The notes beneath the pieces were generated by a model. The model saw only the letters and a program-made list of their open reading frames with translations. It did no database searches and had not been told where the DNA came from. 64,000 nucleotides of DNA from Escherichia coli O127:H6 str. E2348/69. Lineage in GTDB: Bacteria > Pseudomonadota > Gammaproteobacteria > Enterobacterales > Enterobacteriaceae. Location: assembly GCF_000026545.1 (NCBI RefSeq), contig NC_011601.1, one strand, 5' to 3'. Made by a program: the position numbers and the translations under genes. This document shows, piece by piece, positions 52,594 through 63,880 of the stretch (positions are counted from its first letter, which is position 1; each line of letters opens with the position of its first letter).

Positions 52594-52610
52594 ATTACCT
52601 TTTAGGTAAT
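52594..52610. promoter_or_regulatory. Operator-type palindrome ATTACC-N5-GGTAAT (site a)
   Basis: ATTACCTTTTAGGTAAT with TTGACA 16 bp upstream; lies between the head operon and the plus-strand island. Confidence 0.5.
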
Positions 52611-55941: not shown

Positions 55942-55958
55942 ATTACCGTTTTGGTAAT
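55942..55958. promoter_or_regulatory. Operator-type palindrome ATTACC-N5-GGTAAT (site b)
   Basis: ATTACCGTTTTGGTAAT about 20 bp upstream of the terminase small-subunit start. Confidence 0.5.
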
Positions 55959-58369: not shown

Positions 58370-58448
58370 TTTACCTCTCAGGTAATTTAAAACCACAAAC
58401 GAGTTAATTTCAATAGCAATGCGCATATTTTATTACCTTTTTGGTAAT
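58370..58448. promoter_or_regulatory. Two operator-type palindromes (TTTACC-N5-GGTAAT and ATTACC-N5-GGTAAT)
   Basis: Sites at 58370-58386 and 58432-58448 between the P-like gene and the 113-aa gene. Confidence 0.45.
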
Positions 58449-60704: not shown

Positions 60705-60772
60705 AATTATTACCTTTCTGGTGAAAAAATCAATGATTATTACCATTATGGTAACTTTACCTTTATGGTAAT
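60705..60772. promoter_or_regulatory. OR-like region: three operator palindromes plus leftward promoter
   Basis: Sites at 60709-60725, 60739-60755 and 60756-60772; minus-strand TTGATT-N17-ATAATT promoter at 60705-60733 with the first site in its spacer. Confidence 0.6.
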
Positions 60773-60825: not shown

Positions 60826-61422
60826 ATGAAAAGTATTTATGACATAAGACGCAAAAACCTTAACGAAATCATTCGCCGGGATTTCGATGACACCCAGTTA
60901 CGCTTTGCAGAACGGGTGAAGCGTTCGCAGAACCTGGTCAACAGGTGGTGTACTGGTATCAAAAATATCGGACCTAATGCCGCGCGTATCATCGAAGAAG
61001 CAGCCCGCAAAGAAAAGTTCTGGCTTGATGTCGATCACGAACTGGACGCAGTACAGGATGATATCTTTATTCCGGCCACTGAAGATGGAGAATGGACTGT
61101 AGAGAAGCAGGCCGCCGCCACGCTCAATGCCTGGATGAGAAAGAACAGTGAAATGACATCCGAAAAGAAAGTTGCTGTTGCAGCTGGCATTGGACCTGCC
61201 ACCGTTAACCGCATCATGAAAGCGGAAGTCAGCACAACCATCGGCGTTCTTTCCTCCCTGGCGCGCGCGTTCGGGCATGAAGCATACGAGATGATTATTC
61301 CCGTCGGCTCACCTGGTGTTATCGACTATGACCACCGGATGTATGCAGCCCTGCCACAGGAAGAGAAAAACAAGATCACCTCATTCATCAACTTCGTGTT
61401 TGAGCAGAACAAAAGCAAGTAA
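60826..61422 (+). CDS. Prophage repressor (CI-equivalent) without S24 peptidase domain
   Basis: 198-aa ORF divergent from cro-like gene; HTH-like segments; no Ala-Gly / Ser-Lys autocleavage signature seen. Confidence 0.55.
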   Translation: MKSIYDIRRKNLNEIIRRDFDDTQLRFAERVKRSQNLVNRWCTGIKNIGPNAARIIEEAARKEKFWLDVDHELDAVQDDIFIPATEDGEWTVEKQAAATLNAWMRKNSEMTSEKKVAVAAGIGPATVNRIMKAEVSTTIGVLSSLARAFGHEAYEMIIPVGSPGVIDYDHRMYAALPQEEKNKITSFINFVFEQNKSK

Positions 61423-61479
61423 TCCCCCGCCATTCTGACGCTTTACCTGCCCAATGGCGGTAGGCTCACGCCTCACTCA

Positions 61480-61634
61480 ATTACCAAAATGGTAATTTTT
61501 TCTCGTCATACCTATTGACACAATCACTTTTTGATCTGATTATTACCTAAAAGGTAATACAAGAGCGCATTGCTCAGGCAGAAACCACCACTTCGTGGCT
61601 TTCCTGTATCTACTAGTATTACCAAAATGGTAAT
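61480..61634. promoter_or_regulatory. OL-like region: three operator palindromes plus rightward promoter
   Basis: Sites at 61480-61496, 61542-61558 and 61618-61634; plus-strand TTGACA-N17-GATTAT promoter at 61515-61543. Confidence 0.6.
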
Positions 61635-61646
61635 AGCGAGGTTTGT

Positions 61647-61796
61647 ATGCAGTGGAAAATCATCAACGGTTGGTACTGCGTTACAGCTTGCGGGCTGATG
61701 AGCTGGAAGTTCCGCACGCTGGGTGAAGCAATGAACTGGGTATTCGTCAGCAAGCTGGCGGTAAAAACAGAAATGGATATGGGGGTGAGCAAGTGA
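61647..61796 (+). CDS. Small protein (49 aa), first gene of the rightward operon
   Basis: ATG at 61647 with GAGG ribosome-binding site; stop overlaps the GTG start of the next gene (GTGA); below the ORF-track cutoff. Confidence 0.5.
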   Translation: MQWKIINGWYCVTACGLMSWKFRTLGEAMNWVFVSKLAVKTEMDMGVSK

Positions 61797-62752
61797 GCGA
61801 ATTAGCAATTATCGAAATTGCGCCGGACATGGCGCCAAGTATTTACGTAGAAAACGGTCTGGAAAAGTTCCTCGAACAGATCCGCGAAAGCGTTAAGGAA
61901 GTTCCTGACCTGAGTACTGCCAAAGGTCGTGCCCGCATTGCATCTCTGGCAGCACAGGTTTCTCGCAGTAAAACAGCAGTTGAAAAGCCTGGCCGCGATT
62001 ACCTTCGTCATCTGAAAGAAGCCGTCAAACCTGCTGAGGCTGAACTTCGTCGATTTGTATCAGCTTGCGATGAGATGCGCGATGAAGTTCGCCGCCCGCT
62101 TACCGAATGGGAAGCAGAACAAGAACGCATCAAGGCAGAAGAAGCCATGAACGCGATGCACGTCGAAGCGCTGGAGATGAACATTAAGTTCGACCAGGAG
62201 CTGGCGGCCAAGTTCGAAGCAGATCACGAAATGGCATTGCTGATGAATGACGCATTCGACCGCGAAGCGAAGGCGAAAGCAGAAGAAGCAGAACGCCAGC
62301 GCATTGCTCATGAAGAAGAGTTGAAGCGCCAGTCAGAAGAAAAGGCCAAGCGTGAAGCTGAAGAGAAAATCGAACGCGAACGCGCTGAATCTGCACGTCG
62401 CGAGGCTGAATTAAAGTTCAAGGCTGAGCAAGCAGAGCGTGACCGTATTGCCGCAGAGCAAAAAGCTGAAGCAGAGAAGAAGGAAGCCGCTGATCGTGCC
62501 GAGCGCGAAAAGCAGGAAGCTATCGCAGCCGAACAACGCAAAGCCGAAGCAAAAGATGCTGCTCGCCTGGCTGAAGAGAAGCGAATCGCTGATGAAGCTG
62601 CAGCGCGCGCCGCTGATGTAGAGCATCGTCGCGCTATTAATGCCTCTGCTGTTCAGGCTCTGATCGAGCAGGGCATTCCAGAAGACTGGGCCAAAGCCTG
62701 CGTAGTCGCTATCGCTCGCGGGAAAGTTCCGGCAACAACCATCAACTACTGA
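61793..62752 (+). CDS. Coiled-coil protein in the recombination operon
   Basis: 319-aa ORF with long E/K/A/R-rich helical region. Confidence 0.5.
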   Translation: MSELAIIEIAPDMAPSIYVENGLEKFLEQIRESVKEVPDLSTAKGRARIASLAAQVSRSKTAVEKPGRDYLRHLKEAVKPAEAELRRFVSACDEMRDEVRRPLTEWEAEQERIKAEEAMNAMHVEALEMNIKFDQELAAKFEADHEMALLMNDAFDREAKAKAEEAERQRIAHEEELKRQSEEKAKREAEEKIERERAESARREAELKFKAEQAERDRIAAEQKAEAEKKEAADRAEREKQEAIAAEQRKAEAKDAARLAEEKRIADEAAARAADVEHRRAINASAVQALIEQGIPEDWAKACVVAIARGKVPATTINY

Positions 62753-62759
62753 GGTGGCT

Positions 62760-63062
62760 ATGCACATTCAGCAATTCAATAACCTGAAAAAAATAGCCGC
62801 TCAGTTCAGCAGCGACTACCAGCTGTCATCAGAACTGTATGACCGCCACGTTGAGCTGATCGAAGCAGTCGCTGGTTGCGAAATGGAAGAGTCATTCAAA
62901 CGCGCCATTCTCCGTGCCGGTGTTCGCTATGAAGTTCTGGAGGCGGCATTTGAAAGTGATGATTTCGAAGAGCTGATGTCGTCATTCAAACGTGAATTGA
63001 CTGGCGTCATCGCACGTCTTGACCTTGCTGACCAGATCGACAGCAAAAGGAATGCAGCATGA
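62760..63062 (+). CDS. Hypothetical protein
   Basis: ORF 62754..63062; ATG at 62760. Confidence 0.5.
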   Translation: MHIQQFNNLKKIAAQFSSDYQLSSELYDRHVELIEAVAGCEMEESFKRAILRAGVRYEVLEAAFESDDFEELMSSFKRELTGVIARLDLADQIDSKRNAA

Positions 63063-63880
63063 ATACCGGTATCTATTTCGACATCAGCAATGAGGACTAC
63101 CACGACGGTGACGGAGTGAGTAAGTCACAACTGGATATGGTAGCCAAGAACCCTGCCCTTCTGAAATGGGTCAAGGCAGCGCCGGAAGATGAAGAGAAAA
63201 AATCGGCACTGGACATGGGTACCGCCCTGCACTGCCTGCTACTGGAGCCGAAGGAATTCGATAAGCGTTTCATCGTGGCGCCACAGTTCAACCGCCGCAC
63301 AAATCAGGGAAAAGCAGACGAAGAAGCATTCCTGAAAGACGTTGCCGACATGGGTATGACGGTGATGGATGCCGAGCAGGGCCGGAAGCTGAAACTGATG
63401 CGCGACAGCGCAATGGCTCACCCGGCGGCGCGCTGGATGCTGGAAGCGCCAGGACACTGTGAAGCATCGATGTACTGGAATGACGAAGATACTGGCGAAC
63501 TGTGCCGAATCCGTCCGGATAAATGGCTGAACGAGCACAACGTGATCGTCGATGTGAAAAAGGTTGCAGACATGGATCGCTTTGCCCGTCACATCGAGGA
63601 ATTCCGCTACCACGTCCAGGACGCCATGTACCGCGAAGGCGCACTGAAAGTAACCGGGCAGCCACACGGATTCTTCTTTCTGGCTGTGAGCGAAACCATC
63701 GACTGCGGTCGATACCCTGTCCGCGTGTTCGAGCTGGATGCGCCAGATGTTGACGCCGGGCATCAGTTATTCCGCCGGGATCTGAACACCTATCACGAAT
63801 GCCGCATCAGCGATGAATGGGGCGGCGTGGAAATTATTAAACGCCCTGAATGGGCACGAAAACAGGATATGTACGTATGA
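63059..63880 (+). CDS. PD-(D/E)XK-type exonuclease-like protein
   Basis: 273-aa ORF; N-terminus MNTGIYFDISNEDYH and acidic motifs recall RecE/YqaJ-type phage exonucleases. Confidence 0.55.
   Translation: MNTGIYFDISNEDYHDGDGVSKSQLDMVAKNPALLKWVKAAPEDEEKKSALDMGTALHCLLLEPKEFDKRFIVAPQFNRRTNQGKADEEAFLKDVADMGMTVMDAEQGRKLKLMRDSAMAHPAARWMLEAPGHCEASMYWNDEDTGELCRIRPDKWLNEHNVIVDVKKVADMDRFARHIEEFRYHVQDAMYREGALKVTGQPHGFFFLAVSETIDCGRYPVRVFELDAPDVDAGHQLFRRDLNTYHECRISDEWGGVEIIKRPEWARKQDMYV

Follow-up and report, generated by a model that had tools for sequence, protein, structure and literature searches.

Results

Organization of the Immunity and Early Region

The window, a 64,000-nt stretch of the Escherichia coli O127:H6 E2348/69 chromosome (NC_011601.1), ends on its right-hand side in the immunity and early region of a ∼40-kb prophage that lies at the 3′ end of guaA. 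This prophage is a member of the epsilon15/SPN1S/SPC32H/phiV10 group, genus Uetakevirus. The features of the region are collected in Table 1. The Rep-type repressor, which RefSeq names "helix-turn-helix domain-containing protein," matches Pfam HTH_3 (E = 6e-9) and is 98% identical to the repressor of epsilon15, whose annotation cites the SPC32H Rep structure 5D50. The pattern ATTACCN5GGTAAT, with ≤1 mismatch, occurs 10 times in the window against 0.13 expected. The epsilon15 counterparts of the three perfect palindromes O1, O2, and O3 carry a repressor-binding-site annotation. Transcription from the sigma-70 promoter is predicted to start at ∼61550.

The ORF at 61647–61796 has an ATG start and a 49-residue translation, MQWKIINGWYCVTACGLMSWKFRTLGEAMNWVFVSKLAVKTEMDMGVSK. 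The ORF, the promoter, the operators, and synteny agree that it is the first gene of the rightward operon, as the initial annotation had proposed. The details given there also hold: the leader is ∼97 nt long where about 100 bp had been estimated, a ribosome-binding site precedes the ATG, and the stop codon (TGA, 61794–61796) overlaps the GTG (61793–61795) of the next gene in a 4-nt GTGA overlap.

Synteny in related phages, put forward at the same time as a check, is fixed in the contexts that we compared. Every one examined has a fixed order of a Rep-type repressor (∼195 aa), a spacer of ∼150–220 nt, the 49-aa ORF, an optional 319-aa gene, phrog_856 (100 aa), an exonuclease (DUF3799 or YqaJ), and RecT. 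The early operon of E2348/69 comprises 11 genes over ∼5.4 kb, most of which overlap or abut, and runs past the window through RecT, an AlpA-like HTH gene, a PerC-family gene, DUF1317, ASCH, MT-A70, and a 59-aa ORF.

The E2348/69 copy differs from that of epsilon15 in the 319-aa gene inserted downstream. The inserted protein is strongly charged, with a coiled coil and without a Pfam match. A Scandinavium prophage (locus L087) has the same insertion, as does one IMG/VR relative (L033) according to tblastn; epsilon15, TL-2011b, Tyrion, and the Klebsiella phages lack it. The PerC-family regulator gene of the operon lies beyond the right end of the window (chromosome 1331600–1331899; L089 9601–9900), and such a gene is also carried by Klebsiella phage ST512-KPC3phi13.3 and by the Scandinavium prophage. 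Plasmid-borne PerC activates the LEE virulence locus in EPEC, and an operon-borne PerC-family gene could matter in an EPEC strain.

Table 1. Features of the immunity and early region, in window coordinates
Feature	Coordinates	Strand	Remarks
Rep-type repressor, 198 aa, two HTH regions	60826..61422	+	Upstream of the early operon and co-oriented with it
Operator O1, ATTACCAAAATGGTAAT	61480..61496	.	Perfect palindrome, upstream of the −35 hexamer
Predicted sigma-70 early promoter, TTGACA-17 nt-GATTAT	61515..61543	+	10 of 12 consensus matches; sequence prediction
Operator O2, ATTACCTAAAAGGTAAT	61542..61558	.	Perfect palindrome over the −10 hexamer and predicted transcription start
Operator O3, ATTACCAAAATGGTAAT	61618..61634	.	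Perfect palindrome in the leader, directly upstream of the Shine-Dalgarno sequence
Shine-Dalgarno sequence GAGG	61638..61641	+	5 nt before the ATG
49-aa gene, epsilon15 gp37 ortholog, PHROG 898, WP_001198622.1	61647..61796	+	Core residues 1–38, variable tail
Ribosome-binding site (GGGGGTGAG) and GTG start of the next gene	61781..61795	+	Inside the 3′ end of the 49-aa ORF
319-aa coiled-coil protein, PHROG 1376	61793..62752	+	Optional insertion
∼100-aa PHROG 856 protein	62754..63062	+	Downstream in all relatives examined; RefSeq start 62760
PD-(D/E)XK (DUF3799) RecE-like exonuclease	63059..63880	+	
RecT	from ∼63877, past the window end	+	After the exonuclease

Coding Evidence for the 49-Residue ORF

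Homologs of the ORF were extracted from phage records, IMG/VR contigs, and assemblies, giving a set of 49 different DNA sequences, for which we calculated dN/dS by the pooled Nei-Gojobori method. The sense frame gives a ratio of 0.055 over codons 1–25 and of 0.13 over codons 1–38. Values of 1.3–7 are obtained for four of the alternative frames, two in each orientation. The remaining antisense frame, whose wobble positions coincide with those of the ORF, has a ratio of 0.14–0.23, the mirror artefact that is expected. In the near-invariant N-terminal half, nucleotide changes fall mostly at synonymous third positions: the residue is fixed while the codon varies at Q2 (CAG/CAA), I6 (ATC/ATT), N7, G8 (GGT/GGC/GGG), V12, T13 (ACA/ACG/ACC), A14 (four codons), and F22 (TTC/TTT). 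This pattern shows strong purifying selection on the amino acids of residues 1–38; the constraint acts on the protein rather than on an RNA or DNA element. That a nut/put-type RNA accounts for the invariance of the N-terminal half is ruled out by the synonymous changes, the unremarkable fold of the leader, and the lack of an Rfam match.

The start of the gene is also kept, with the ATG and a Shine-Dalgarno sequence (GAGG or a related purine block) retained across 38 distinct upstream sequences, and intact copies from the fetched loci are 49–51 codons long. In ∼550 E. coli chromosomes, the megablast match starts right at the ATG (window 61646, query position 207). The upstream immunity sequence is common to just five of them, and the start codon is therefore a mosaic boundary. 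By these comparisons, the ORF is a genuine and strongly conserved gene, so that the conservation check suggested in the initial annotation came out in its favor.

In phage Tyrion, an antisense ORF of 70 aa is annotated over the small gene (L005 3405–3617). In 94–98% of the sequences, the ORF can be read through without a stop in two antisense frames, whose boundaries move freely. We ruled out an antisense gene because its starts and ends are not conserved and its dN/dS is worse than that of the sense frame.

Family, Distribution, and Annotation Status

The ORF had been taken to be unlisted. This was mistaken: RefSeq PGAP lists it as the hypothetical protein WP_001198622.1, and epsilon15 lists it as gp37. 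Another annotated copy is gp09 of TL-2011b. The protein matches PHROG 898, which is labelled as of unknown function, with residues 1–49 on profile positions 1–49 of 50 (E = 3.2e-31). Members of this PHROG and of the gp37 family, in SPN1S, SPC32H, phiV10, TL-2011b, and Klebsiella and Enterobacter prophages, are orthologs with the same position and neighbors. With tblastn, 36 phage records have a match to the protein, and the phage copies are 68–98% identical to it. The gene is also present in 555 of 5426 complete E. coli genomes.

Broader searches recovered only the same small family. HMMER against 1.84 billion representatives returned 22 hits, all short family members apart from spurious repeat matches, and a search of 5.8 billion proteins yielded ∼60 clusters, whose named sources are all Enterobacterales (Escherichia, Salmonella, Klebsiella, Enterobacter, Raoultella, Kluyvera, Scandinavium, Hafnia, and Serratia). 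Fusion of the domain into larger proteins was rejected, the two long hits being MucBP-type repeats and a repeat artefact. The protein has no match in Pfam, NCBIfam, PADLOC, or PDB sequences. A literature search for the protein, its accessions, and the PHROG found nothing, and the ZX5 paper (PMC9782041) does not discuss the protein. The gene and its family are thus already catalogued as hypothetical proteins, with no function published in the literature searched; the present analysis adds evidence for a real gene, a predicted fold, the two-frame 3′ end described below, and the rejection of the analogy to lambda N.

Public annotation of the locus is not uniform. In several database entries, such as P0056 and P0057 (93 aa), the ORF is lengthened on its upstream side to take in part of the leader. 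Phages VB_ST_E15 and VB_ST_SPNIS2 have no annotated feature under the match. These two "lytic" phages were considered as natural knockouts and rejected as such: the ORF of VB_ST_E15 is intact (L092) and merely unannotated, and VB_ST_SPNIS2 gave the same tblastn match.

Conserved Residues and Predicted Fold

In the widest alignment, M1 and T13 are invariant, and W3, Y10, G16, S19, F22, W31, A32, F33, and A38 are nearly so. G8 is found in 94% of the aligned members and is invariant until two distant homologs join. Neither cysteine is conserved, with C11 replaced by L, F, Y, H, R, or I and C15 by S. Both being replaceable, a zinc or disulfide protein, as suggested by a weak match to PF24184 (E 0.02–0.13), was ruled out. 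In divergent members, the hydrophobic N-terminal stretch contains charged residues ("SATGKRREF" in P0045 and "KKNHQGKYIF" in P0046). Because of these charged residues, and because some members have replaced the cysteines, the protein is probably soluble, with no transmembrane helix, zinc site, or disulfide. Net charge is not conserved, and the pI ranges from 4.5 to 10.6 across the family.

AlphaFold with an alignment of 38 more diverse sequences gave five models with pLDDT 68–75, in which strands at residues 2–6, 9–14, and 18–22 are followed by a helix at 25–47. Three antiparallel strands are predicted to form a compact sheet against a single C-terminal helix. The two hairpin turns of this sheet agree with the positions of G8, which is part of an N/D/E-G turn, and of G16. 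Three β strands and a helix, as modeled here, make a generic fold. A run with a shallower, 23-sequence alignment gave a different, helix-helix model of low confidence (pLDDT 58), a counterpoint to the binding-protein reading that follows.

Proposed Role as a Small Early Binding Protein

We propose that the gene encodes a small folded binding protein that is the first to be made after derepression and most likely binds a conserved host protein, a reading to which we give about an even chance. In the proposed scheme, the Rep-type repressor would hold the early operon off through the three operators, and on infection or induction the 49-residue soluble protein would be the first product of the early promoter. 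Its action would then be stoichiometric, through binding to a partner conserved throughout the Enterobacterales. For this partner, a host protein is the most likely candidate, so that the gene product would serve as an accessory in host takeover or anti-defence, as other small early proteins of phages do; DNA, or the integrase/recombination machinery of the phage, would be a less likely partner, and antitermination by binding of an RNA hairpin in the manner of lambda N would not be expected.

Two observations shape this proposal. First, residues 1–25 hardly vary among phages that share 40–47% identity in Rep and 46–51% in phrog_856 and that carry exonucleases of either of two Pfam families (DUF3799 or YqaJ). 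Invariance of the N-terminal half while the neighbors diverge suggests a target that is independent of the phage modules, most simply a conserved host protein. Second, protein binding is favored over binding to nucleic acid because net charge is not conserved. As a class, binders of a host or phage protein with a host-takeover, anti-defence, or accessory role have, in our estimate, somewhat less than an even chance; what the alternatives discussed below leave over falls to explanations outside this set. If the near-invariant half does imply a conserved, probably host-directed target, finding that target could reveal a new host-takeover or anti-defence interaction. The gene would be the first to come on when epsilon15-like prophages are derepressed, and its carriers make up about one-tenth of complete E. 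coli genomes and also include Salmonella and Klebsiella.

Resemblance to AP2 and Integrase Arm Domains

The predicted fold also allows a different partner. As a counterpoint to the protein-binder reading, the arm domain of the integrase encoded by the prophage itself shows a weak similarity to the protein, which would favor DNA binding. The protein could be a small sequence-specific DNA binder with an AP2/integrase-arm fold that regulates early transcription or modulates site-specific recombination, for example by occupying or competing for the arm-type sites of the integrase. The PF13356 and PF00847 domains (the N-terminal domains of lambda and Tn916 Int, and AP2) have the three-stranded antiparallel sheet and C-terminal helix that are predicted here. 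With Foldseek against predicted viral structures, fragments of AP2-like "HNH endonucleases" are among the matches of highest probability (0.89–0.91, with TM scores of 0.70–0.78), and an integrase fragment appears among the lower-ranked matches (probability 0.41). Non-DNA-binding proteins, however, match the fold equally well or better.

At the profile level, we used a PF13356 profile of 121 sequences, relatives of the cognate integrase. In hhalign, residues 7–23 align with residues 23–40 of the P4-type Int arm domain, a local similarity in the second and third strands (P = 0.005). The score was reached by 1 of 200 column shuffles and was not reached by the reversed profile. By eye, INGWYCV resembles NNGYYCY of lambda Int and GLMSWKFR resembles GSVSFRYD of the prophage's P4-type integrase; hhalign recovers both alignments weakly, with a probability of 7% against lambda Int.

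Against this, the hhalign probability with the P4-type domain is just 7.5%, from a comparison picked after viewing the sequences, and 23 family members searched against Pfam have no AP2 or Arm-DNA-bind match at E up to 10. The family also differs from arm and AP2 domains in having no fourth strand and no conserved basic residues, in standing alone at 49 aa, and in including several acidic members (pI 4.5–5.5). The similarity lies under every significance threshold, and we regard this weak, non-significant resemblance as a lead and not as family membership. A DNA binder of this kind is thus possible, but unlikely. A narrower version, in which a free-standing, minimized arm/AP2 fold made as the earliest product serves as a switch factor, either as a decoy or partner of the Int N-domain or its arm sites that biases the direction of recombination or as an RNA-polymerase-binding, N-independent antiterminator, is a more doubtful proposition still; if true, it would assign a function to an orphan family with members in ∼10% of complete E. 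coli genomes.

Comparison with Lambda N

The initial annotation had placed the gene in an N-equivalent position. With respect to cI, OL/PL, and the recombination genes, this stands. Lambda has cI, OL/PL, nutL, and N, with gam-bet-exo further on, and the 49-aa gene shares with N (and with P22 gp24) a place as the first gene from a repressor-controlled early promoter, with the repressor co-oriented and recombination genes downstream. Functional or evolutionary equivalence does not follow. The protein is half the size of N, is predicted to be folded, and is without sequence similarity, a recognizable nut site, or convincingly predicted terminators. As the same annotation had remarked, there is no arginine-rich motif: a single Arg is present among 49 residues and none among the first 22, where lambda N has five. 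Arg accounts for 12% of lambda N but for a mean of 3.9% in the family, and the family profile aligns to N with an hhalign probability of 0.1%.

The nucleotide sequence points in the same direction. No boxA (YGCTCTTTA, ≤1 mismatch) was found on the + strand from 61400 to 64000, a search that highly divergent nut sites would escape. Shuffled sequence folds as well as the leader does (z = −1.1), and there is no match in Rfam. No convincing intrinsic terminator is predicted on the operon strand from the promoter through RecT, and terminator-like hits are no commoner than in shuffled sequence; such prediction does not extend to Rho-dependent terminators. The likeness to N is one of position only, and the 49-aa gene should not be annotated as an N-like antiterminator.

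This leaves the broader idea of a functional N equivalent, a processive antiterminator working through a nut-like RNA or, like Xp10 p7, by direct binding to RNA polymerase. The gene holds N's place downstream of the early promoter, the operon that it heads is long, no other antiterminator is annotated in the prophage, and the 109 nt that separate the PerC-family gene from the gene before it do contain one weak terminator-like hairpin on the operon strand. Yet overlapping and abutting genes leave no space for terminators, and the predicted fold is not the disorder of N; together with the missing motif, boxA match, leader structure, and predicted terminators, this makes an antitermination function very improbable. 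Computation leaves room, all the same, for an antiterminator that binds RNA polymerase in a non-N-type manner.

The Two-Frame 3′ End and Probable Coupling to the Next Gene

The C-terminal tail is the variable part of the protein. The epsilon15 gp37 tail (…EVANDNGIWG) and that of E2348/69 (…KTEMDMGVSK) differ by a change of frame over the same nucleotides: the conserved block GGATATGGGGGTGAGCAAGTGA is read as …DMGVSK* in E2348/69 and as …NGIWG* in epsilon15. Compared at window 61775–61796, L002 2880–2905, and L092 1620–1650, the same block gives the two tails through upstream indels. It comprises the ribosome-binding site and GTG start of the following gene, which is the 319-aa gene in E2348/69 and phrog_856 in epsilon15. 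Since the 3′ end carries these signals of the next gene, the two genes are probably translationally coupled.

The ORF might be mainly a coupling device or leader ORF, whose translation opens the next ribosome-binding site and GTG and whose peptide has little function. The placement of both signals (GGGGGTGAG and the GTG) within its last 16 nt, the 4-nt overlap, and the retention of the nucleotide block while the C-terminal residues differ by frame would all suit such a device. Epsilon15 and TL-2011b, however, stop a few nucleotides before the next start with no overlap. A pure coupling ORF is further disfavored because it would not show selection at the amino-acid level, which residues 1–38 do (dN/dS 0.055–0.13), with near-invariant aromatics and glycines across genera. 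We consider it highly unlikely that coupling is the main function.

Other Small Early Proteins

A small membrane-active or toxic peptide of the Hok or Kil type, with an N-terminal transmembrane helix, would draw on the moderately hydrophobic, lysine-flanked residues 5–20, the helix-helix model from the shallow alignment, a chance match to a TRPML transmembrane segment (E 0.6), and weak DUF2985 hits, but is extremely unlikely given the several charged residues inside the putative helix of divergent members, the β-sheet model of higher confidence from the deeper alignment, the fit of near-invariant G8 and G16 to β-turns, and an hhalign probability of 0.2% against lambda Kil and Rac KilR. A transmembrane peptide as such was ruled out on the divergent homologs.

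The binding protein that we favor has no detectable sequence relationship to known small early accessory proteins. In hhalign, probabilities are ≤0.7% against lambda Kil, CIII, and Ral and Rac YdaF, YdaG, and KilR, and ≤4.2% across the 17 proteins tested; lambda Gam, Ea10, orf60a, and orf63 and Rac YdaE, RacC, RalR, RcbA, and XisR likewise showed no relationship. T7 Gp1.2 was compared by structure only. Kinship with lambda CIII, suggested by a common "MQ[YW].I..GW" at the start of both proteins, was rejected, with no alignment in BLASTP and an hhalign probability of 0.7%.

Rac YdaF of K-12 (51 aa, DUF1391; L093 7157–7312) is similarly placed: it is the second gene to follow the racR repressor. 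YdaF and the 49-aa family both have a β-rich N terminus followed by "F.T...A..W" (hhalign 0.4%), a likeness that may be coincidence or convergence.

Operator-Type Palindromes Beyond and Within the Early Region

Operator-like palindromes near the Shine-Dalgarno sequence are not confined to this immunity type. In 37 of the 38 distinct upstream sequences, which include other immunity types, such a palindrome lies from a few to ∼9 nt upstream of the Shine-Dalgarno sequence. In the 40 nt before the ORF at loci L001–L088, these palindromes take the forms ATTACC..GGTAAT, TTACCTCAACGGTAAC, and others. The SD-proximal operator lies ∼70 nt downstream of the promoter, and in E2348/69 it corresponds to O3, 3 nt from the Shine-Dalgarno sequence. 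The repressor gene is co-oriented with the operon and no + strand terminator is predicted after it; O3 could therefore roadblock read-through from the repressor gene in lysogens.

Further palindromes of the Rep-operator type, with 0–1 mismatch, lie at 35348–35364, 52594–52610, 55942–55958, 58370–58386, and 58432–58448, and also at 60739–60772. By coordinate conversion to RefSeq, two of the outlying palindromes fall in the gap after the replication P gene; one is at the beginning of the small-terminase gene, and the remaining two precede the portal operon and the tail-spike gene, respectively. Their distance from the immunity region suggests that the repressor may control or roadblock promoters beyond the two early ones.
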